A stretch of 64,000 nucleotides of DNA. Origin: Bacillota bacterium. GTDB lineage: Bacteria > Bacillota > Sulfobacillia > JAUYEG01. The stretch spans positions 62,738 through 126,737 of the forward strand of contig JAUYEG010000081.1 of the NCBI GenBank assembly GCA_030691505.1, written 5' to 3'. Below are positions 12,177-36,655 of this stretch, one piece after another (the first letter of the stretch is position 1; every line of letters starts with the position of its first letter). Under the pieces are notes generated by a model. It had not been told where the DNA came from, searched no databases, and was given only the letters and a program-made list of their open reading frames with translations. Both the position numbers and the translations under genes were made by a program.

Positions 12177-12383
12177 TAGCTAGCAGCGTCGTTCCTTTTG
12201 AGATCGGAGCGGCGGCGAATGACCGACAGGTCGCTCCATTCGCGCGTCGTATCGGCTGCAGTGAAGTGAGAGGCACAGCGTTTTGATGGCTTTGTTTTGG
12301 TTTCCAGCGTGACAGCCCGCCTTTTCGCGCGTTAGACAGTTGCAGCGGAGGTGGGCAGCATAGGCGGCGAGGTGGTTTGGACG

Positions 12384-12956
12384 ATGGTCCTGAACGGGCC
12401 CCGTGAGGTCACGGACCTTGAGGTTAGGCGCCTGGTCCGCCGGGCCGTCGACGACCCGGAGTCGTTCCGGAAGCTCTACGACATGTACATTGACCACGTG
12501 TACGCGTTCGCCTACCGGCGCCTTGGTTCGCGAGCCGAGGCCGAGGACGCGACGGCGGACACAATGCTGGCCGCCCTGGCCAACCTGGACCGTTTCGCCT
12601 GGAAAGGCGGCGGCTTTGGAGCCTGGTTGTTTCGCATCGCCCGCAATCGCTGCCTGGACGCTCTCCGGGACCGCCGGCGCGAGTTGCCACTGCTGGCGGA
12701 TCACGCTGCGGAAACGGGCTCGGACGGCGCCACGCCCGAGGAGGCGCTGATTTCGGAGGAACAACACGACCGGATCAGGGCGCTCGTCGCCGGACTGCCC
12801 GACCCGCAGCAGGAGGCCGTCCTGCTCAAGTACTCAGCCGGTCTGAGCAACAAGGAGATCGCCGAAGCCACGGGGCGGACCCCGACGGCCGTCTCAAGCC
12901 TGCTCAACCGCGCTACCAGCAAGCTCAGGAGACAGTGGGGTGAGCAACATGGCTGA
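12384..12956 (+). CDS. RNA polymerase sigma-70 family ECF sigma factor
   Basis: Region 2 (YDMYIDHVYAFAYRRLGSRAEAEDATADTM) and region 4 HTH (LSNKEIAEATGRTPTAVSSLLNRATSKLR) are present. The ORF opens at 12351; the ATG at 12384 after GAGGTGG is preferred. Confidence 0.8.
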   Translation: MVLNGPREVTDLEVRRLVRRAVDDPESFRKLYDMYIDHVYAFAYRRLGSRAEAEDATADTMLAALANLDRFAWKGGGFGAWLFRIARNRCLDALRDRRRELPLLADHAAETGSDGATPEEALISEEQHDRIRALVAGLPDPQQEAVLLKYSAGLSNKEIAEATGRTPTAVSSLLNRATSKLRRQWGEQHG

Positions 12957-14175
12957 TAAGAGGGAGCGGATACCGGACGCGGAGCTGGACGACCGGCTGA
13001 CCCGGGCGCTGGCCGCGCCTGAGGCCGACCCGACGTTCCGCGCCCACCTCCGGCGCAAGGTCATGGAGCAGCACCCGGCAGCAGGGCTTGAGCAGCCTGA
13101 GAAATGGAGGGCAAGCGATATGACCAGAGTCGAGAGGCATAGCGCGCAGAAACCGCGTAGGTCGATTTCGCTCGGGCGCGTCGCCGCGGCGGTTGCGGCG
13201 GTGGCGGTCCTAGCAGTGGTAGCCGCTAAGCTGATCATGCCGGCCCCCGGTCCGGTTGCCGAGTTCGGAACCCTGCCCGGCCTTGCGGCGGGGCTGCCCC
13301 CGGAGGGCGGGGGCGCGGGCGGACCGGGCTACGAGTTCGAATTTACGTACGGCCTTGGCGGGGCCCTGACGTCCGGGTGGCCCAAGCTTCAGGACAAGGA
13401 ACTTGCGTACAAGCTGAGGGCGGAGTTCACCGAGGCGAGAGTCGCGGCGCTGGCGACCAAACTCGGTATCACAGCACCCGTGGTACGCGAAGAATGGCAC
13501 GATGGCTATCTGCTGGCGGCCGATCCCGGCGACAACGGTCCATCGCTGCGCATGTTCCCGGGCGGGTACACGGCCTATTCGCAGCCGTATGATGCCGAGG
13601 AACTGCCGCGGAGCGCCCTTCCGAGCGACGCGCGGGCCATCGAGATCGCCCGCAATTGGTTAGTGAACAACGGTTTTGTCCCAGCCGGTACTCTGGGCGC
13701 GGCAACGGTCATAGAGGATCTTCAGAACGGAAGCCTGTACGTGAGGTTCAAACCTGCCGAGCCTGCGGACATCGTCACCATCTCGCCGTTCGGCAACGTG
13801 CAGATCACTAAGGGCGAGAAGATCGCCTACGGCTCGGCAACCTGGTTCCCGGCCGTCGGGACGTCGAAGTATCCCCTGCGTCCTGTAGCCGACGCATGGG
13901 AGCAGGTGCGGGCCGGCCTAGGGATCCTGGATTGGCACGCTATTGAGTTCCCTGGGCCGTCCGCCGACGACAACCTGATCACCGGGCAGGCAACGGTTGA
14001 CAAGGTGCGCGTGGCCTGGTACCTAACGTTTGCGAGCGACGGCACGCCGTACCTGGTCCCGGTCTACGCGTTCTCGGGCACGGTGCAGGTCGGCGGAGGG
14101 GGAGACGATGGGCCGACGACCCTGCCGTTCCAGGTATGGGCCCCGGCCGCGGCAAGCCAGCACGTGCAGCAGTAG
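12940..14175 (+). CDS. putative membrane-anchored anti-sigma factor with large extracytoplasmic domain
   Basis: It overlaps the 3-prime end of the ECF sigma gene. It has a short cytoplasmic N-terminal region, a single TM (VAAAVAAVAVLAVVAA) and a 300-aa C-terminal domain. The sigma/anti-sigma arrangement is inferred from position. Confidence 0.55.
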   Translation: MSNMADKRERIPDAELDDRLTRALAAPEADPTFRAHLRRKVMEQHPAAGLEQPEKWRASDMTRVERHSAQKPRRSISLGRVAAAVAAVAVLAVVAAKLIMPAPGPVAEFGTLPGLAAGLPPEGGGAGGPGYEFEFTYGLGGALTSGWPKLQDKELAYKLRAEFTEARVAALATKLGITAPVVREEWHDGYLLAADPGDNGPSLRMFPGGYTAYSQPYDAEELPRSALPSDARAIEIARNWLVNNGFVPAGTLGAATVIEDLQNGSLYVRFKPAEPADIVTISPFGNVQITKGEKIAYGSATWFPAVGTSKYPLRPVADAWEQVRAGLGILDWHAIEFPGPSADDNLITGQATVDKVRVAWYLTFASDGTPYLVPVYAFSGTVQVGGGGDDGPTTLPFQVWAPAAASQHVQQ

Positions 14176-14317
14176 GGACTGGATTGGCCCGGCAGACCGG
14201 GCGGGTGATCGTAAGTTGGCAAAGAGCCCTCCGCACGCGGCCACCGCCGCTCGGAGGGCTCTTCGCCTGCACGGCGAAACCGTCTTGCCGTCGAGGTCCG
14301 ATTGGAGGTGTGCGTCC

Positions 14318-15098
14318 TGTGACACCTGAGGAAGACGTCGCAAAGGGCGGGTGCGGCCCCATCAACTACGAAGCCCTGGCGGCCACCTACGCCCGTTTCC
14401 GGGAGGCGGTTCCGCGGGTGGTCGAGTACCTGGTCCGGACGCTGGACGGGATCAGCTCGCCCGCTATCCTGGAAATCGGTTGCGGAACGGCCGACCACCT
14501 GGCCGCGCTAGCGGACGTGATCGCCCCGCTGGGCGGCCGGGCTGCAGGTTTCGACCTATCGCCCGGGATGCTGAAGCAGGCCGGTGCCAAGCATCCGCAG
14601 CTCCAGCTGTTGCAGGGCGACGCGCACGGCCGCTTTCCGTATGCGGACGGGCAATTCGACCTGGCCTTTTCTGTGAACGTCATCCACTACCTTAGCGATC
14701 TGAGTACGCATTTCGGCGAGGCGAGGCGGGTGCTGCGTCCGGGCGGGCGCCTCGTGACGGTGACGGACTCGGAGGAAGACATTCGTGCGCGCACCATGAC
14801 GCACTACTTTCCGGAAACGGTCGACCGGGAGCTTGAGCGCTACCATCCGGTGGCTCGCCTGACCGCGGCCATGCGGGCGGCAGGATTTGGCGGCATCGAG
14901 GTCGCTCACACCCGCCACGCGAGCGTCTTCAGCCCGGCCGACATCGACCGCTACCGGCGGCGCGCCTTCTCTGCGCTGCGGCTCATTTCGGAGGAGGCGT
15001 ACAACAGGGGCCTCGCCCGCCTTGAGTCCGACTACGCCGCCGGCCCGCTTGAGCTTGAGCTGCTGGAGCTCTACACGTACGTGTCCGGAAGGGCGTAG
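14318..15098 (+). CDS. class I SAM-dependent methyltransferase (Methyltransf_11-like)
   Basis: SAM-binding motif I ILEIGCGTADHL, motif post-I FDLSPGML, LRPGGRLV. The ORF opens at 14136, but a GTG at 14318 gives the typical length. Confidence 0.7.
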
Positions 15099-15109
15099 GT
15101 CCCTTTTCC

Positions 15110-15520
15110 CAGGATTCTCACGTCCTTTACCGGCGGTCCTTTCGCTCTTGCGGGCAGCCCTTTTCATCAGGCGAGAATCTCGGGCGGGTAGTTCACTCCA
15201 CATGAGCATGTGCCTGTCGGTGCGCTCACGTGCTGAAAACTAGCGACCGCCGTTCTCATCCAGTGAAAACGTACTGACGGCGATACTCGCCAGACGAGAA
15301 CCATACGGCAGAGGTTCTCACGTGATGAAAACCGGTGGGGTGGATTTCCATCTGGCGAGAAGGCTAAGGCGGTCGTACTCGCCAGTTGAAAACCCCTCGG
15401 GATGGGTTCTCATCTGATGAGAACCCTGGGTACCATTTCCGCCACGTGAGAACTCGGAGATAGCTCCTCTCGCCACGTGAACACAGATCAACCAAGATTC
15501 TCGCACGGTGAAAACCTGCT
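15110..15520. repeat. array of about 9 copies of a ~21-bp imperfect palindrome (consensus about GGTTCTCAYSTGATGARAACC) in both orientations
   Basis: Copies seen directly: 15114 gattctcacgtcc; 15170 (rc) gcgagaatc; 15227 tcacgtgctgaaaac; 15252 gttctcatccagtgaaaac; 15313 ggttctcacgtgatgaaaacc; 15376 ctcgccagttgaaaacc; 15406 ggttctcatctgatgagaaccc; 15443 cacgtgagaactc; 15497 gattctcgcacggtgaaaacc. Local GC is lower than the flanks. Confidence 0.7.
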
Positions 15521-15604
15521 CCCCCTCGGAGACCGGAGCCCGGGCAATACACTCCGGTCCACCGCATGAGGACTGCAGGACGCGATCGAAGCACGCACGC
15601 TCCT

Positions 15605-16417
15605 CTACGTTTTGTCTCCGGGGCTGCGCCGCTGCTGTTGCCTATCCAGCCTCCCAGTCTTGGCCGCGTAGGCAAGGCTGATCCTCGCCAGGGTCTTGTA
15701 GTAGGGTCCGTCTTCGTTCACATAGTTCAGCGCCAAGTTATCAGGCAGGAGCCTCCGAAAGGCCTCGGGGGCCAGATCCTCCGCTGACACGGTTATCAGG
15801 CTCACGCCCTGTTGCTGGCTGAGGGCTAGTTTCGCCAGATCATGGTTGCGAGTCTCCCTGAAGCCCTTGTCTTCGCCGAAGGTCGATGAGGCGGAGTAAT
15901 GCTGGGAACCGTTGAACTCGAAGGCCACTTTGGCCTGGTAGTAGAACCGGTCGTACTCGAGGGGCGGGGCGTCCTCAGTAGGTCTGAGGAAGTCAGGGCG
16001 AGCGTTGTCCACATAGGCGTCGCTCCAGACCCACATATCGAGGTGGCGTTTCATCAGGAACTCCCCCCTGTTGGGGGCGAAGCCATACTCGACCTCAAGG
16101 AGTTGGGCCATTTCAACTTCGCAGCGAATGGGAATGGTCGGGATGGGGCATATCCTGCGACCTGGTTGTTTGGACATACGCATCCAATCGGTTGCCTCAA
16201 GCCGTTCGCAAGCCTTGGCTACCGTGGCCCATGATAAGTCCAGGGCTGCGGCGATTTGTCTGATATTCTTAGGCCTGAAGAACAGACACCATAGATACAG
16301 CGAACGGTCAATGAAGCCGAGTCCCTGCTGGGCCGCCAGCTCTCGCAATACCACGCCGTGCACTCGCACTCCTTGATCTCCGTCTCCTTTCCAGGGGCGA
16401 TGGGCCCATTGTAGCAT
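15605..16417 (-). CDS. winged-HTH protein with C-terminal DUF559 / Vsr-like (PD-(D/E)xK) endonuclease-like domain
   Basis: The C-terminus FYYQAKVAFEFNGSQHY...FRETRNHDLAKLALSQQQGVSLITVSAEDL fits the DUF559 pattern (ExDGxxH ... R..L...G..V.R). The central wHTH is IRQIAAALDLSWATVAKACERL. GC is below the window average. Confidence 0.5.
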   Translation of the reverse strand: MLQWAHRPWKGDGDQGVRVHGVVLRELAAQQGLGFIDRSLYLWCLFFRPKNIRQIAAALDLSWATVAKACERLEATDWMRMSKQPGRRICPIPTIPIRCEVEMAQLLEVEYGFAPNRGEFLMKRHLDMWVWSDAYVDNARPDFLRPTEDAPPLEYDRFYYQAKVAFEFNGSQHYSASSTFGEDKGFRETRNHDLAKLALSQQQGVSLITVSAEDLAPEAFRRLLPDNLALNYVNEDGPYYKTLARISLAYAAKTGRLDRQQQRRSPGDKT

Positions 16418-16525
16418 GAATGGGAAAATCTGACATGCCAGTTTCGGGCACGAGAAGACCCCGCCGAGCTCATCTGCCCGACGGGGTCTGCGTGGTCGGT
16501 CAAGAGGATTGTTGGTTGGGGCTCC

Positions 16526-19187: not shown

Positions 19188-19265
19188 GGTGGATGTAGCT
19201 CAATTGGTTAGAGCGTCGGACTGTGGCTCCGAAGGCTGGGGGTTCGAGACCCCTCATTCACCCCA
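19188..19265 (+). tRNA. tRNA-His (anticodon GTG)
   Basis: Cloverleaf with an extra 5-prime G-1 paired to C73, D-arm GCTCAATTGGTTAGAGC, anticodon loop CTGTGGC, T-arm GGGGGTTCGAGACCCCT, and CCA encoded. Confidence 0.85.
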
Positions 19266-19371
19266 GATAACCAGGGCCTCCCCCAAAGGGAGGCCTTTCG
19301 CGCGCACCTTAGGGTATAATGATGACTGTCATTCCGGCGCATCGCCTGATGACGCAAGTCTGCCGTTTCGC

Positions 19372-19447
19372 TGGGGCGTCGCCAAGCGGTAAGGCGCCGG
19401 ACTTTGGATCCGGTATTTCGTAGGTTCGAATCCTACCGCCCCAGCCA
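19372..19447 (+). tRNA. tRNA-Gln (anticodon TTG)
   Basis: Acceptor TGGGGCG/CGCCCCA with a U1:A72 pair, anticodon stem-loop CCGGA-CTTTGGA-TCCGG, T-arm GTAGGTTCGAATCCTAC, and CCA encoded. Confidence 0.85.
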
Positions 19448-19565
19448 AAACACCCCGGCGGCGCGCCCCGGCACGCACCGCGGCGCGGGCTTTTCGCTGC
19501 TCGGACGGCATGGTAAACTACAGTAGCTATCGCCGGGACGCGACAATCCGGGGGTAACGTCTTGT

Positions 19566-19641
19566 GGGCCATTAGCTCAGCTGGCAGAGCACCCGCCTTT
19601 TAAGCGGGGTGTCGAAGGTTCGAATCCTTCATGGCCTACCA
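19566..19641 (+). tRNA. tRNA-Lys (anticodon TTT)
   Basis: GGGCCATTAGCTCAGCTGGCAGAGC D-arm, anticodon stem-loop CCCGC-CTTTTAA-GCGGG, T-arm GAAGGTTCGAATCCTTC, acceptor ATGGCCT, and CCA encoded. Confidence 0.85.
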
Positions 19642-19686
19642 GTTTTTGTTCGAGGCGGCTTGATCCCACTCGAAGCGGCAGTTGAG

Positions 19687-19773
19687 GCGGGCGTAGCCGA
19701 ATTGGCATAGGCGCTGGACTTAGGATCCAGTGGGGTCACCCCCGTGGGGGTTCAACTCCCCCCGCCCGCACCA
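19687..19773 (+). tRNA. tRNA-Leu (anticodon TAG), long variable arm
   Basis: GCGGGCG acceptor, anticodon stem-loop CTGGA-CTTAGGA-TCCAG, long variable arm TGGGGTCACCCCCGT, T-arm GGGGGTTCAACTCCCCC, and CCA encoded. Confidence 0.85.
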
Positions 19774-30314: not shown

Positions 30315-30851
30315 GTGGCGAGGGCTGTTGCACTCCGTCCCGTGGCTGAGGACGATTTCGACCGCTTGGTAACCTGGGAAACCGACCCCACCATCGAAAT
30401 CCAGTTTGGCAAGACCTTTTCATCCATCGGCGACTTCAGGCGCTACCGTGCAGAACTCGTGCGCGGGCGCCGCTATGCCATGGTGGTCGAGGCCGAGCAG
30501 ACCGGAATCATCGGCTATGTCGAGCTTGTCAACCTGGCCTGGCGGGCCAAGTCCGCCGAGCTCTGCGTGCTCATCGGCGAGGAGCGCTTCCGGGGGCTGG
30601 GCCACGGCACGTCCGCCCTTGACCTCTTCCTGCAGGTCGCCTTCGAGCAGCTTGCGCTGGATCGCGTCTACCTCAGGGTCGCGTGCGGCAACAAGCGCGC
30701 CCGGCGCTGCTACGAAAAATGCGGCTTCCGGGCCAGAGGCATACTGCCGGTGACGGCGCGCCAGCCGGACCGCTCGGACGACCTGCTGCTAATGGAGCTG
30801 TGGCGGTGTGATTGGGCCGCGGGCGGCCGCGTCGCGGCGGGGGAGTCTTAG
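30315..30851 (+). CDS. GNAT family N-acetyltransferase (RimJ/RimL-like)
   Basis: GNAT motifs: IGYVELVNLAWRAKSAELCVLIGEERFRGLGHGTSAL, RVYLRVACGNKRARRCYEKCGF. Confidence 0.8.
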   Translation: MARAVALRPVAEDDFDRLVTWETDPTIEIQFGKTFSSIGDFRRYRAELVRGRRYAMVVEAEQTGIIGYVELVNLAWRAKSAELCVLIGEERFRGLGHGTSALDLFLQVAFEQLALDRVYLRVACGNKRARRCYEKCGFRARGILPVTARQPDRSDDLLLMELWRCDWAAGGRVAAGES

Positions 30852-30889: not shown

Positions 30890-31095
30890 GCGCCGCGGGA
30901 CTGCTCGCTACAGAGCAGGTGCTGGGCCCGACCTGCTTTCTGCAGATCAGATGTGGGCCGACCTGCTTTCCACAGAGCAGCAGATGGGTTCCTGCTCGCC
31001 ACGAAGCAGATGGCTTGGTGGACCTGCTTTCCTGAGAGCAGGTCGCCGGCAGTACCTGCTTTGTAGCAAGCAGGCGCCGTGTCCGGCCTCCCACC
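30890..31095. repeat. six tandem imperfect hairpin (palindromic) repeat units, about ACCTGCTTTCnnnAGAGCAGGT, 30-35 bp period
   Basis: cctgctcgctacagagcaggtg; acctgctttctgcagatcag; acctgctttccacagagcagcag; tcctgctcgccacgaagcag; acctgctttcctgagagcaggt; acctgctttgtagcaagcaggcg. Confidence 0.7.
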
Positions 31096-31199: not shown

Positions 31200-31495
31200 A
31201 CGAGGAAGAGTAGTCCCGCACGGACCTCAGAGAGGGCGGCTCACCGGCTGCGAGGCCGCCTGGGAGATTGGCGGGACGAATGTCGCCTCTGAGCTTCCGG
31301 CGCGAGGGCCCGCAGGGATACCGATCCCGGGCCGGAGAGCCGGGCGGGAGAAGCCCGTTACAGCGTCAAGTGCTTGACGGCCGGCCTGCCGGATCGGATC
31401 GGATCGGCCTGGCGGCCGGCGGCGGGAACTAAGGTGGTACCGCGGGAGCGGATGCTTTCGTCCTTTGGGGGCGAAGGCATTTTTGTTTTCGGTGC
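31200..31495 (+). promoter_or_regulatory. T-box riboswitch leader of valS, with terminator
   Basis: Stem I GA-motif region gacgaggaagagtag at about 31197. Conserved T-box sequence AACTAAGGTGGTACCGCGGGAG at 31427-31448. Terminator hairpin ATGCTTTCGTCC/GGGGCGAAGGCAT followed by TTTTGTTTT at 31452-31489, just upstream of valS. Confidence 0.65.
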
Positions 31496-31515
31496 CGCCG
31501 CGAAGAGGAGTTGAG

Positions 31516-34290
31516 ATGCCCATGAAGACGACATCCGGGCTCGCCGGGCCCGCAGTGCCCACGGCGCCCGCCGCGCCCACGACACCCGCCACGCCCGCCG
31601 GCGATCAGCCGCAGGGCCGGCGGGATCTGCCGACAGTCTACGACCCAGCGTCCGTGGAGGTTCGCCGTTACGAGGAGTGGGTGGAGGCGGGGTATTTCCG
31701 CGCCGAAATCGTGCCGGGCCAGGAGCCCTTCACGATCGTCATTCCGCCGCCCAATATCACCGGCGCCCTGCACATCGGCCACGCCCTGAACAACTCGCTT
31801 CAGGATGTGCTGATACGCTGGCGGCGGATGGCTGGCCAGCCGGCGCTGTGGCTTCCCGGCACCGACCATGCCAGCATCGCCACGCACGCGCGCATTGAGA
31901 AAAACCTGGCCGAGGAAGGGACCAGCCGCTTCGAAATAGGCCGGGAGGAGTTTCTGCGCCGCGCCTGGGCCTGGTACGACAAGTACGGCAACACCATCCT
32001 CAACCAGCTCCGCCGGCTCGGCTGTTCCTGCGACTGGTCGCGCCAGCGCTTCACGCTGGACGAGGGCTTGTCACGGGCGGTGCAGGACCATTTCATCACT
32101 CTCTATGAGCAAGGGCTCATCTACCGCGGCGACTACATCGTCAACTGGTGTCCGGGCTGCCGCACGGTGGTGTCGGACATCGAGGTCGTCCACACCGACG
32201 AGGACAGCCACCTGTGGCATGTGGCTTACCCCTTGGCCGACGGTTCCGGCGAAATCGTGGTCGCCACCACGCGGCCCGAAACGATGTTGGGCGATACCGC
32301 CGTAGCGGTGCATCCCGATGACGAGCGGTACCGCGATTTGGTCGGCAAGGAAGCCGTACTGCCGGTGGTCGGCAGGATGCTGCCGATCATCGCTGACACG
32401 TACGTGGACCCGGCGTTCGGGAGCGGAGCGGTGAAAGTGACTCCGGCTCACGATCCCAACGACTACGAGATCGGGCGGCGTCACCGGCTGCAGCAGGTCA
32501 CGGTCATCGGCGAGGACATGAACATGACGCCCCAGGCCGGCAAGTACGCCGGCATGGACCGCTACGAGTGCCGGTCGCTGCTTGTAGAGGAACTGGAGAG
32601 CCTCGGCGCGCTGCGTTCGGTCGAGCCCTACCGGCACTCCGTGGGGCACTGCGACCGCTGCGACACGGTGATCGAGCCGCTGATTTCCCGCCAGTGGTTT
32701 GTTAAGATGAAACCCCTCGCGGGTCCGGCGATCGCCGTCGTCCGGCGCGGACGTGTGCGTATCCTGCCCGAGCGGTTCGAGAAGATCTACCTCAACTGGA
32801 TGGAGAACATCCGCGACTGGTGCATCAGCCGCCAGCTCTGGTGGGGCCACCGGATTCCGGCCTGGTATTGCCGGCAATGCGGCGAGGTGATCGTCGCCCG
32901 GGAGGAGCCGGCGTCCTGCGCCGCCTGCGGCGGCCTGCTGGAGCAGGACCAGGACGTGCTGGACACCTGGTTTTCCTCGGCGCTTTGGCCGTTCAGCACC
33001 CTCGGCTGGCCAGACGACACGCCCGACCTGCGCTACTTCTTCCCGACGACGGTGCTGATCACGGCCTACGAGATCATCTTCTTCTGGGTGGCGAGGATGA
33101 TATTCAGCTCGCTGCACCTGACCGGCGACCGCCCGTTCCGCGATGTGCTGATCCACGGGCTCGTCCGCGACGGCGAAGGGCGCAAGATGTCCAAGTCGCT
33201 GGACAACGGCGTGGACCCCATCGAGGTGATCGAGAAACACGGCGCCGATGCGCTGCGTTTCGGCCTGCTGACGGGGACGTCGCTCGGCGGCGATGTGCGG
33301 TTTTCCTGGGACAAGTTCGAGTCAGCGCGCAACTTCGTAAACAAGCTGTGGAACGCGGCCAGGTTTGTCCTCCTCAACCTTGACGGGCCCGGGCAGGACG
33401 CACCTGCCGTCGCCGCCGGCGGGGGCCGGGAAGGGCTCCCTGCCGCGGATCTGGAGCTGGCCGACCGCTGGATCCTCTCGCGCCTGGCCCGGCTTACGGC
33501 ACAGGTCAGCTCGATGCTGGAGCGCTACGATGTCGGCGAGGCGGCGAAGGCCATGTACGATTTCGCCTGGGGGGAGTTCTGCGACTGGTACATCGAGCTC
33601 GCCAAGATCCGCCTGTACGGCGATGATCCGGCGCGCCGCGACGCGGCCCAGGCAGTTCTCGTCTACGTGCTGGAACGGCTGTTGCGCCTGCTTCATCCGG
33701 TGATGCCGTTCGTGACGGAGGAAATCTGGCAGGCCCTGCCGCACGACGGCCCGAGCATTGTCGTCGCGCCGTGGCCCGAGACCCTTCCTCACCTGGAGAA
33801 CGACCGGGCCGAAGCGGAAATGGGCCGCGTCATGGATACCATCCGGGCCGTCCGGAACATCCGCGCGGAGATGAACGTCCCGGCCGGAAAGCAGGCCGAT
33901 GTTACCTTGCAGGCCGCCGAGCCCCGCGTGCGCGAGTTGCTTTCCGCGGCGTCACCGTATATCCGCGGCCTGGCGTCCGTCGGCGGGCTGCAGGTCGAAC
34001 CAACCGGCGGCACCCGGCCCAAGCAGGCGGGCGCGGCGATCCTCGCGGGGATCGAGGTCTACATGCCGCTGCGCGGCCTCATCGACTTCGAAAGGGAGGC
34101 GGGGCGCATCCGCCGGGCGCTGGGAGAAGCGGAGTTGGAGCTGGCCCGGGCCCGCGAACGCCTGGCAAATGAGAGCTTTCTGCGGCGCGCTCCGGCCGAC
34201 GTGGTCGCCAGGGAACGCGAGAAGGAAGCCCAATACGCTGAGCAGGCCGAAAAGCTGCGCCAGCGGCTGACGTTGCTTGAGGAAGCATAG
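31516..34290 (+). CDS. valS: valine--tRNA ligase
   Basis: HIGH motif (PPPNITGALHIGHAL), KMSKS (GRKMSKSLDNGVDP), CP1 editing domain, and C-terminal coiled coil. About a 35-aa Pro/Ala/Thr-rich N-terminal extension. Start ATG 31516 after GAGGAG. Confidence 0.95.
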   Translation: MPMKTTSGLAGPAVPTAPAAPTTPATPAGDQPQGRRDLPTVYDPASVEVRRYEEWVEAGYFRAEIVPGQEPFTIVIPPPNITGALHIGHALNNSLQDVLIRWRRMAGQPALWLPGTDHASIATHARIEKNLAEEGTSRFEIGREEFLRRAWAWYDKYGNTILNQLRRLGCSCDWSRQRFTLDEGLSRAVQDHFITLYEQGLIYRGDYIVNWCPGCRTVVSDIEVVHTDEDSHLWHVAYPLADGSGEIVVATTRPETMLGDTAVAVHPDDERYRDLVGKEAVLPVVGRMLPIIADTYVDPAFGSGAVKVTPAHDPNDYEIGRRHRLQQVTVIGEDMNMTPQAGKYAGMDRYECRSLLVEELESLGALRSVEPYRHSVGHCDRCDTVIEPLISRQWFVKMKPLAGPAIAVVRRGRVRILPERFEKIYLNWMENIRDWCISRQLWWGHRIPAWYCRQCGEVIVAREEPASCAACGGLLEQDQDVLDTWFSSALWPFSTLGWPDDTPDLRYFFPTTVLITAYEIIFFWVARMIFSSLHLTGDRPFRDVLIHGLVRDGEGRKMSKSLDNGVDPIEVIEKHGADALRFGLLTGTSLGGDVRFSWDKFESARNFVNKLWNAARFVLLNLDGPGQDAPAVAAGGGREGLPAADLELADRWILSRLARLTAQVSSMLERYDVGEAAKAMYDFAWGEFCDWYIELAKIRLYGDDPARRDAAQAVLVYVLERLLRLLHPVMPFVTEEIWQALPHDGPSIVVAPWPETLPHLENDRAEAEMGRVMDTIRAVRNIRAEMNVPAGKQADVTLQAAEPRVRELLSAASPYIRGLASVGGLQVEPTGGTRPKQAGAAILAGIEVYMPLRGLIDFEREAGRIRRALGEAELELARARERLANESFLRRAPADVVAREREKEAQYAEQAEKLRQRLTLLEEA

Positions 34291-35629: not shown

Positions 35630-35730
35630 CCGGCCTGCCGGCCCGCAGCAGGGTTGTGCCGCCGGGTCCCCGAATTGAGAGCGAGGTTTGGGCATGCATG
35701 CCACCCAAGGCAGATTCGGGAGGTAGCCGC

Positions 35731-36655
35731 CGTGCATCGATCCGGGCGCAAGCGGGAGCCGGCCCGCCGCTCGCTGGGCGTGGTCATGTTCCTTGTCGCA
35801 CTGGGCCTCGCCGGGTTGGTGGTCGGGGCATTCTTCGGCAACTACATCATCAGGTCTCTGATCGAGGCTACCAGTCCTCCCGGCGGCACGTCTTCCGGCG
35901 GCGGGACGACGCCGGGCGGGACTACTCCCGGTGGGACAACGCCCGGGGGTGGGACCACTCCAGGCGGGACGACGCCCGGGGTGACGCCGCCGCCTTCATC
36001 AGTGCAGGTGTTGCTGCAGCCGTACACTTTCTTCGCGGTTCAGGTCGGGGCGTTCAGCGAGGCGAGCATGGCCCAGCAGGTGGCGCGTCAGGCCTCGGAG
36101 CTGGGCCTTCCCAGCCACGTTGGGGAGCCTGAGCCTGACGGGAGCGACAGGCTCTGGCGCGTGCGCTGCGCGATTTTGCCGTCGCGAGAAGGAGCGGAAG
36201 CGGTGCTCAAGATCGCTCGTACCGCAGGCTACACGGACGCGTTTCTGGCCCAGTTCCAGACCCGCGCGATGGACCTGACCGTCCAGGCGTCTTCGGCGCA
36301 ATACCTCACTGGTTTCCGCGATGCGCTGCAGGGCATGTCCGAACTGATGCGCAATGAGGCCCAGGCCTGGGACGCCCATGCGCGCGGAGGGCTCGACTCG
36401 CGGGTTCTTGGCGGGTACCTGACCGCGGTCGGCGCCTCCGCGGCAAAGGTTCGCCAGGCGCTTACCGGCTTGACGCCGCCGACCGATCTTCGCGAGCGGC
36501 ACGACGTGTTGACCGGTCTGGTCAACATGGCCGACGCGTCCGCCGTTGAGTTCGCCAACGCCGCGCAGGGAACCCAAGCCCAATACGCCCGCGCGATGAG
36601 TGAATACATGAGGTTTGTTGCAGCCTTCAGCCGCGTTTGCGCCAGCTGGCGATAA
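35731..36655 (+). CDS. SPOR-domain membrane protein (SpoIIB-like by position) with (T-T-P-G-G)n linker
   Basis: TM VVMFLVALGLAGLVVGAFF, a Thr/Pro/Gly-rich repeat, then a SPOR domain FFAVQVGAFSEASMAQQVARQASELGLPSHV...WRVRCAILPSREGAEAVLKIARTAGYTDAFL. It follows folC, as spoIIB does in Bacillus. Confidence 0.55.

Follow-up and report, generated by a model that had tools for sequence, protein, structure and literature searches.

A strictly periodic array of imperfect palindromes beside a winged-helix, Vsr-fold nuclease gene, and its possible role as the binding-site array of a mobile homing-nuclease-like gene

Results

A palindrome array with a strict period

The window, by which we mean the whole stretch of 64,000 nucleotides that was analysed, carries a SAM-dependent methyltransferase gene on the + strand (14136-15098; Pfam Methyltransf_11, E 2.7e-21), a gene for a winged helix-turn-helix (wHTH) protein with a nuclease-type second domain on the opposite strand, and an amidohydrolase gene beyond it. 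Between the convergent 3' ends of the methyltransferase and wHTH genes (15098 + / 15605 -), where the original prediction had placed a dense cluster of imperfect palindromes, we find just such a cluster (Table 1). Sites with two or fewer arm mismatches number 14 within 420 bp here, against 0.55 per kb in the rest of the window, an enrichment of about 60-fold. Rather than about nine copies lying 40-60 bp apart, as first described, the array comprises 12 units on a strict period of 30.59 bp (residual sd 0.44 bp, by regression on the arm starts), the left 5-mer arms beginning at 15161, 15192, 15223, 15253, 15284, 15315, 15345, 15376, 15407, 15436, 15467 and 15498.

The core of each unit consists of arms TTYTC and GARAA with 7 bp between them, usually flanked by G and C, giving an imperfect palindrome of 19-21 bp; in short form the array is made of imperfect dyads GTTYTC-N7-GARAAC of 17-21 bp. 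Units occur in both orientations, and four of them (arm starts 15223, 15315, 15436 and 15467) carry a CACGTG core, both features having been noticed before. The perfect 21-bp palindrome reported at 15406 also exists, starting one base earlier than was given. Scored with a palindromic position weight matrix (PWM), the 12 units reach 15.8-29.1 bits, and just one position in the remaining 63.5 kb scores 15 bits or more. The information resides in the arms, at 0.9-1.8 bits per position, and is close to zero in the spacers of about 12 bp. Compared with a single reference copy the units are 64-88% identical, with spacers of about 12-14 bp. Self-similarity within the array is highest at a lag of 92 (match fraction 0.473, compared with a maximum of 0.434 in 2000 shuffles), which indicates that the array is built of a 92-bp, three-unit higher-order repeat.

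Tandem Repeats Finder, run over the window, did not report the array because its units are too divergent, and Rfam gave no family at the array, its only matches being four tRNAs elsewhere in the window. A possible thirteenth unit at the left edge was not counted as a site because its PWM score is -1.1. The hairpin between the nuclease gene and the array has no T-run after it, and the terminator scan made no call there. The array stretch is an islet of lower GC, as had been proposed, at 0.54-0.57 against about 0.68 in the flanks. The array is real and private to its locus.

Table 1. Positions of the features in the window, followed by the arrays found beside homologous genes at other loci
Feature	Position or locus	Strand	Description
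Possible decayed 13th unit	15113..15133	.	only left arm left, TTCTC 15115-15119; half a period out of register
Dyad array	15160..15516	.	12 imperfect units, consensus GTTcTCA-cctGg-TGAGAAc; from PWM, arm information and 29-31-bp spacings
Best unit, perfect 21-bp palindrome	15405..15425	.	GGTTCTCATCTGATGAGAACC; highest PWM score, 29.1 bits
Hairpin	15531..15559	.	GACCGGAG-N13-CTCCGGTC; between nuclease-gene stop codon and array; from sequence inspection
MarR-like winged-helix + Vsr/EDxHD-type nuclease gene	15605..16417	-	longest ORF 270 aa
Sigma-70-like promoter match	16408..16436	-	ATGTCA-17-TACAAT, with TG; at 5' end of 270-aa ORF
GC-rich hairpin, likely terminator of amidohydrolase	16456..16489	.	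just past amidohydrolase stop, inside inserted segment
Inserted module	15099..16525	.	whole intergenic stretch, methyltransferase stop to amidohydrolase stop
Second, orphan array	30901..31073	.	6 units CTGCTY-N6-RAGCAG; spacings 32, 30, 29, 32, 32 bp
Array, TCTGC-N6-GCAGA	L016		period 31 bp; 12 units
Array, CTGGTC-N6-GACCAG	L012		period 31.5 bp; at least 12 units
Array, TGAGCA-N4-TGCTCA	L010		period 30 bp; 7 units upstream, at least 5 downstream
Array, TCACC-N7-GGTGA	L014		period 32 bp
Array, 59-bp two-unit repeat	L001 / L007		period 29.5 bp; 10 / 7 units
Array, 64-bp two-unit repeat	L020		period 32 bp; 11 units
Array, GTGCAAAC-N3/4-GTTGGCAC	L027 / L028		period 42 bp; about 20 / 12 units

The neighbouring gene combines a MarR-like winged helix with a homing-nuclease-like domain

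In GenBank the gene at 15605-16417 is entered as a hypothetical protein of 249 aa from a Bacillota MAG (locus tag Q8P31_06395). Since a sigma-70-like promoter match lies at the 5' end of the long ORF, the true start codon should lie further in; homologues of the protein begin where V17 aligns. The N-terminal half matches the MarR profile (E 2e-4) and has a winged helix-turn-helix fold with flanking helices. It does not reach the Pfam gathering score for MarR/MarR_2 (14.4 bits against a cut-off of 24.6), and of 29 relatives, 13 have a MarR_2 match with E<=1, at best 1e-5. The C-terminal domain has a Vsr-like nuclease fold, for which Pfam, NCBIfam and PADLOC offered no family. The label wHTH-DUF559 given in the original prediction therefore stands at the level of folds (MarR-like wHTH, Vsr/DUF559) and fails as a Pfam assignment, there being no match to DUF559 (PF04480) or Vsr at any listed threshold. 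PADLOC returned nothing except weak matches to CARF models (E 0.001-0.025).

By sequence the nuclease domain is akin to homing endonucleases. Alignment by hhalign to a 'homing nuclease' of Bacillus phage 0305phi8-36, ORF194, gave a probability of 98% (E 2.5e-13), and homing-endonuclease families of PHROG matched with E 6e-9 to 1e-5, the phage matches being confined to the nuclease domain. Among 29 family sequences D156, H173 and D193 never vary, and N169 is kept in at least 90%. The spacings of these four residues (13, 4 and 20) give them, at sequence level, a likeness to the active site of I-Bth0305I, which consists of D196, N208, H213 and D222 (PMC3239194), and from this likeness we consider that the nuclease domain is probably active. 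The wHTH half is much more variable across the family than the nuclease half. The two-domain architecture is found in at least 314 clusters at 50% identity (counted on representatives at E<=1e-30), and a tblastn search with the protein against 72,556 plasmids gave zero matches.

Gene and array come and go as one insertion

An orthologous site on a JGI contig, L099, shows the same neighbourhood with neither gene nor array. The flanking genes there are 78% (amidohydrolase), 67% (methyltransferase) and 68% (the next gene) identical to those of the window, with order and orientation kept, and the convergent stop codons lie 11 bp apart, compared with 1427 bp in the window. It follows that gene and array make up one 1.4-kb insertion that was gained or lost together. 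Gene and array are present or absent together at this site. The GC content of the inserted segment, 0.53-0.62 against about 0.68 in the flanks, taken together with the joint gain or loss, supports the earlier suggestion that the DNA was horizontally acquired. All four insertions that we inspected (window, L001, L004 and L010) lie between convergent genes. Short near-repeats at the ends of the insertion, AGGGAGC and AGGGACC, were considered as a target-site duplication and set aside as too short to trust. A candidate autoregulatory site at 16441-16459, upstream of the nuclease gene, was likewise not counted: at 1.6 bits it is the best PWM score there, and the gene's own promoter has no significant copy of an array site.

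Homologous genes carry arrays of like design and different sequence

We surveyed 160 loci, cited here by L numbers, from scans of genome and metagenome contigs. The genome loci come mostly from Bacillota MAGs recorded as Limnochordia, Symbiobacteriaceae, Fermentithermobacillaceae and Thermaerobacter, the metagenome loci carrying no taxonomy, and one genome often holds several divergent paralogues of the wHTH-nuclease. It had been suggested to look for the window motif beside other genes of this kind. What the closer homologues carry are arrays of the same architecture, with arms of 5-8 bp, centres of 3-7 bp and 8-14 units, built on a different palindrome. The array lies downstream of the gene in the window and at L001, L005, L007, L008, L010, L012, L014, L016 and L031, upstream at L015, L019, L020, L023, L030 and L035, and on both sides at L010 and L031. 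Most periods fall between 29.5 and 33 bp, near three helical turns, and a few are 42 bp, which is about four turns; the few of 35 bp, and the 29.5 bp of L001, are not whole numbers of turns.

A strict detector of regular palindromic arrays fired in only 5 of 383 control chunks (1.3%). Beside the gene it fired at 12 of the 33 close genome loci and at 18 of the 50 loci from metagenomes. In 18 of 36 close loci an autocorrelation statistic lay above the 95th percentile of its 399 control chunks. A clear array is thus present at only about one third to one half of the family loci. At the distant homologues L037-L084, which are mostly nuclease-domain-only matches, arrays are rare. The association of gene with array accordingly belongs to the two-domain family and not to Vsr-like proteins at large.

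Within 788 kb of related sequence, the PWM of each array matches only that array or its orthologue. This argument for private motifs is weaker than it looks, as the likeness of units within an array could come from recent tandem duplication and not from selection for a protein. Similar recognition helices go with a common motif in the pairs L001/L007 and L027/L028, and the other loci differ. In some arrays (L001/L007 and L020) two different palindromes alternate within each 59-64 bp, and between L001 and L003 the difference is exactly one 59-bp higher-order unit; the arrays, then, vary in steps of entire repeat units. From one member of the family to the next, gene and array stay together and the palindrome alters. 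The strict period, the kinship with homing nucleases and the mobility of the module had all been missing from the original prediction, which to that extent under-read a locus that it had rightly singled out.

Arrays also occur on their own. The second array in the window has no family gene near it, and control regions of L012, L019 and L042 likewise gave array detections without a nearby family gene. A tandem repeat at 35900-35992 was rejected as an array of this kind, being a coding repeat of GGTTP type.

Alternative explanations of the array

Taken together, these sequence comparisons make it rather likely, in our judgement, that the array is a set of cis-acting binding sites private to a mobile gene of the homing-nuclease-like kind. 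One alternative is that the array acts as RNA, forming either a structured 3' UTR in the transcript of the gene or a hairpin-array RNA of its own, and serving as a REP-like stabiliser of mRNA or as an antitoxin-like or protein-binding partner of the kind known from type III toxin-antitoxin systems. At L001 and L007 a clear intrinsic terminator (GGGACCCTGC-N4-GCAGGGTCCC, then a T-rich tail) stands beyond the array and none lies between gene and array, so that the array there is probably transcribed with the gene. Mismatches in the window units, read on the sense strand of the gene, are more often G-U (13) than A-C (4), and the array folds far better as RNA than its shuffles do (z -6.6). The opposite strand, however, folds as well (z -6.4), and the arms do not co-vary: 52 of 84 arm pairs are Watson-Crick pairs, which is what random re-pairing of the right arms gives (53.8 +/- 2.4), and the variant left arms TACTC and TTTCC face unchanged right arms (GAGAA/GAAAA). 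The uncompensated mismatches and the equal folding of the two strands disfavour a role as RNA, and further points against it are the presence of units in both orientations, the varying position of the arrays, which may precede the gene, follow it or do both (with a promoter-like sequence between array and gene in L020), the weakness to be expected of 5-bp A/U-rich stems and the lack of a matching family in Rfam. An RNA role is possible where array and gene are co-transcribed, as in L001 and L007; as a general account we regard it as improbable, and from the sequence patterns we favour the arrays being double-stranded DNA sites for a dimeric protein.

Nor need a series of DNA repeats have any function. 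The higher-order repeats of two or three units and the copy-number polymorphism of whole units are features that slippage or unequal crossing-over would give, in which case the array would be tandemly duplicated DNA hitch-hiking with a mobile gene, and its palindrome and period would reflect the seed that was duplicated. These genomes do contain other intergenic tandem arrays away from family genes, and the window units are rather decayed. Against this, independent loci whose sequences are unrelated converge on a dyad of 16-21 bp, on a period mostly of 30-33 bp and on 8-14 units, and arrays are more than 10-fold enriched beside the gene relative to controls. Moreover, even in the decayed window array the arms have kept their information while that of the spacers has fallen to about zero, which argues for selective retention and not for uniform decay, and we hold it improbable that the array is without function. 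Appreciably less probable still is that an integrated plasmid-like replicon left the array behind, as an origin or control locus of iteron type or as a centromere (sopC of F and incA/incC of P1 being examples), with the wHTH protein as initiator or centromere-binding protein. Some 12 tandem sites beside a wHTH gene, and sometimes on both sides of it, would suit such a locus, as would a spacing near whole helical turns and motifs specific to each paralogue, which incompatibility groups would have. Yet the segment is a 1.4-kb insertion in conserved chromosomal synteny that carries neither a ParA/TubZ-type NTPase nor a helicase loader nor any further gene of a replicon; the protein finds no tblastn match among the 72,556 plasmids and has a conserved nuclease, not a second winged helix, as its second domain; and the units are dyads and not direct repeats, with no AT-rich unwinding region seen by the array on inspection of the sequence. 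The least credible of the alternatives, and one to which we attach very little weight, is that the units are mobile palindromes of the REP/BIME or MITE type, members of a genome-wide family that cluster here by chance and have nothing to do with the gene. It shares with our data imperfect palindromes, mixed orientation and a place between convergent genes, as is the case for BIMEs. A decayed cluster of such elements had been one of the two options in the original prediction; it is disfavoured by the privacy of the motif within the 64 kb, where a single position outside the array scores like the weakest unit, by the 788 kb of related sequence, in which no array motif is dispersed, by units that lack a GTAG/CGTC tag, and by the orthologous site (L099), from which the array is absent along with the gene.

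Discussion

A proposed two-part module

The other option originally offered, an operator- or iteron-like cluster for a dimeric DNA-binding protein, possibly the adjacent wHTH protein, is the one that the comparative evidence favours, and on this basis we infer that the protein encoded at 15605-16417 binds the window dyads. Gene and array would then constitute a two-part module inserted between two convergent housekeeping genes, in which each 17-21-bp dyad takes up one protein dimer. As the spacing of about 30.6 bp is near three turns of the helix, about 12 dimers would be aligned on roughly one face of the DNA, with a drift of about -30 degrees per unit at 10.5 bp per turn, and could join in one cooperative nucleoprotein complex or filament. 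The role that we would prefer for such a complex is to hold the nuclease in cis, and so to provide self-control and autoregulation, and/or to offer a multi-copy recognition platform while the element is being copied, this being the least certain step of the proposal. In one variant of the platform, breaks inside the array would be mended by annealing between units. Alternatively, the array might act as a roadblock to convergent transcription.

Given the kinship with I-Bth0305I, a selfish, homing-nuclease-like life style is plausible, and the module may spread in this manner. In the usual logic of homing, insertion of the element destroys its target. The present case departs from this logic, in that up to 12 putative sites of the nuclease are kept beside its gene, and this is the main point that the binding-site reading leaves unexplained. 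Also counting against that reading are the periods that are not whole turns, the alternation of palindromes, the probable co-transcription of array and gene at L001 and L007, the family loci with no array, the orphan arrays and the absence of a site in the promoter.

Significance

More tentatively, the combination of a wHTH/Vsr-fold nuclease with a private, helically phased array of sites as one mobile unit could represent a new class of selfish element or chromosomal system, a bolder claim that we would put forward as possible but doubtful. Such an element would be a functional analogue of RAYT plus REP, or else a homing endonuclease with a multi-copy target, and its array could be a landing or copying platform. 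Repair of double-strand breaks by annealing would then account for changes in copy number by whole units, for genes lying between two arrays and for orphan arrays that remain after loss of the gene. The literature that we searched yielded no description of a module made of such a gene and array. In our view the chance that the module stands for a class of element not known before is a fair one.

Should the protein indeed bind the array, the module would amount to a natural nuclease of programmable look, with a dozen of its own sites beside its gene, phased with the helix, and with a half-site that differs from paralogue to paralogue. The at least 314 clusters would then provide a ready set of matched pairs of protein and DNA site in which to follow the evolution of winged-helix specificity, and deep-branching, high-GC Bacillota would be credited with a new type of mobile or selfish element. 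There would also be the question of how cells withstand a nuclease whose own targets are arrayed beside it, and a class of CRISPR-like false positives in these genomes would be explained.

Comparison with known systems

CRISPR arrays combine repeats of 23-47 bp that are nearly identical with unique spacers of about the same size, and are accompanied by cas genes. The window array shares with them regularly spaced, partly palindromic repeats and variable spacers, but its repeats are 17-21 bp long, only about 75% alike and in both orientations, its spacers are about 12-14 bp, and no Cas domain was found in the seven neighbouring ORFs. These short, degenerate repeats bear out the original view that it is not a CRISPR array. 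Type III toxin-antitoxin systems of the ToxIN kind have direct RNA repeats, nearly identical to one another, upstream of a toxin of the ToxN/AbiQ fold, with a terminator between; we rejected this comparison in view of the degenerate units, their two orientations, the varying side of the array and the Vsr fold of the protein.

As regards regulators, the geometry of the sites, with 5-bp arms 12 bp apart from centre to centre, appears compatible with a dimer of MarR type on a palindromic operator of 16-20 bp. A parallel for the array as a whole is sopC of plasmid F, which consists of 12 tandem units of 43 bp, each with a 16-bp dyad bound by SopB. The module too has about 12 tandem units with one dyad each for a putative HTH dimer encoded next door, its period is near whole turns, and a large cooperative nucleoprotein complex would be expected; it differs in having neither a ParA-type partner nor a plasmid context, in its far more degenerate units and in the nuclease domain of its protein. 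Iteron arrays, for their part, flank rep genes (P1 incC/incA, F ori2/incC) and are direct repeats that lie by DnaA boxes and an AT-rich region on a replicon. In common with them the module has putative sites for a winged-helix protein that lie to one side of its gene or to both and have a private specificity, and titration or handcuffing is a possible logic for it; unlike them, its sites are dyads on a 1.4-kb chromosomal insertion that has no replicon genes.

RAYT is a tyrosine transposase of the HUH class, and REPs occur as tens to hundreds of dispersed copies. In the module, by contrast, the motifs stay within a single array, the fold of the enzyme is that of Vsr, and the units start with G/A-TTYTC and lack the GTAG/CGTC tag. 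Beside the window array there is no RAYT gene, the neighbours being the methyltransferase and the amidohydrolase. The module is like REP/BIME elements and RAYT (cf. PMC3733652) in having a nuclease-type gene flanked by palindromes of its own that differ from paralogue to paralogue, clusters between convergent genes, and orphan clusters elsewhere.

The protein differs from those of the Vsr and DUF559 (PF04480) families: besides lacking a Pfam match to either, it bears no sign of mismatch repair, is fused to a MarR-like part and is tied to an array. Nearer are the EDxHD homing endonucleases, whose prototype I-Bth0305I acts as a homodimer, cutting the pseudopalindrome TTxG-x6-CxAA and making contact with two half-sites of about 30 bp (PMC3239194). 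These and the module have in common an N-terminal helix-turn-helix DNA-binding part, dyad-symmetric targets (putative in our case) and polymorphism for presence or absence of the gene. The gene of the module, in contrast, is free-standing and intergenic, not in an intron or intein; its protein has a winged helix of MarR type and not NUMOD motifs; where those enzymes destroy a single target, it retains up to 14 putative sites in tandem beside it; and it is chromosomal in Bacillota, not in phage. Judged by these analogies, the module would work most like an EDxHD homing endonuclease gene joined to a sopC- or iteron-like array, and at the level of the whole system it seems to resemble a RAYT with its REPs.

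Palindrome arrays without a neighbouring family gene

A second palindrome array lies in the window, with successive unit spacings of 32, 30, 29, 32 and 32 bp, and its units resemble sites on L001 and L007, two of the contigs holding family homologues. An HMM search of the window in all six frames found no family gene beyond the winged-helix–nuclease fusion at 15605-16417. A paralogue elsewhere in the genome may serve this array in trans, or alternatively the array may be a remnant of gene loss. Four related genomes also carry short tandem arrays away from any family gene, one of which (L030) has the unit GCTGCC-G-GGCAGC, similar to a site on the homologue contig L005. These gene-less arrays may likewise be orphans, or they may be the property of other proteins.

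Tandem Repeats Finder also reported a repeat of 15 and 33 bp at 35900-35992 in the window. It lies inside an ORF (35654-36655, plus strand) and codes for a Gly/Thr/Pro-rich peptide repeat. This coding repeat has no relation to the palindrome arrays.

Location of arrays and associated ORFs
Feature	Position	Unit or period	Strand
Second array, design as in module	window 30901-31073	6 units CTGCTY-N6-RAGCAG	
Left neighbour, 178-aa ORF	window 30315-30851		+
Right neighbour, 941-aa ORF	window 31465-34290		+
Same-palindrome arrays enclosing family gene	L010 3140-3350 and 4795-4935	GCTGAGCAC-N-GTGCTCAC, 30-bp period	
Small Cdd1-type helix-hairpin-helix ORF, between both arrays with family gene	L010 3507-3764		
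Short tandem array, palindromic core, not adjoining family gene	L019 1650-1830	35 bp	
As above	L030 6100-6210	32 bp	
As above	L012 near 1890	31.5 bp	
As above	L042 near 1725	44 bp	
Repeat stretches in the 42-bp-period branch	L028 4740-4850 and 4965-5447		
As above	L027 5127-5945		

Gene models near the module

The longest ORF of the methyltransferase (14136-15098, 320 aa) probably starts too far upstream: the orthologue has 259 aa, and the alignment begins only at residue 63. Judged by synteny with L099, a related contig that lacks the module, the sigma-70-like gene is probably the plus-strand ORF at 12351-12956 rather than the minus-strand ORF at 12180-12767. Four clustered tRNA genes (Rfam) lie on the plus strand at 19189-19770, about 3 kb from the module.

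Arrangement and copy number of arrays beside the gene

The family gene looks to be embedded in its own array in L010, where the downstream array is interrupted by a scaffold gap (Ns), and in L031, where array units similarly flank the gene on either side. The branch represented by L027 and L028 has arrays of 12 to ~20 units with a period of 42 bp, starting roughly 250-420 bp downstream of the gene. In L028 the stop codon is immediately followed by some five direct repeats of 21 bp (ATACCTGAGGYCATCYC), distinct from the array.

Between the near-identical metagenome contigs L001 (6690-7190) and L003 (1518-2077), the only differences are a single 59-bp higher-order repeat of the array and one substitution. 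The array difference is a copy-number polymorphism by whole units.
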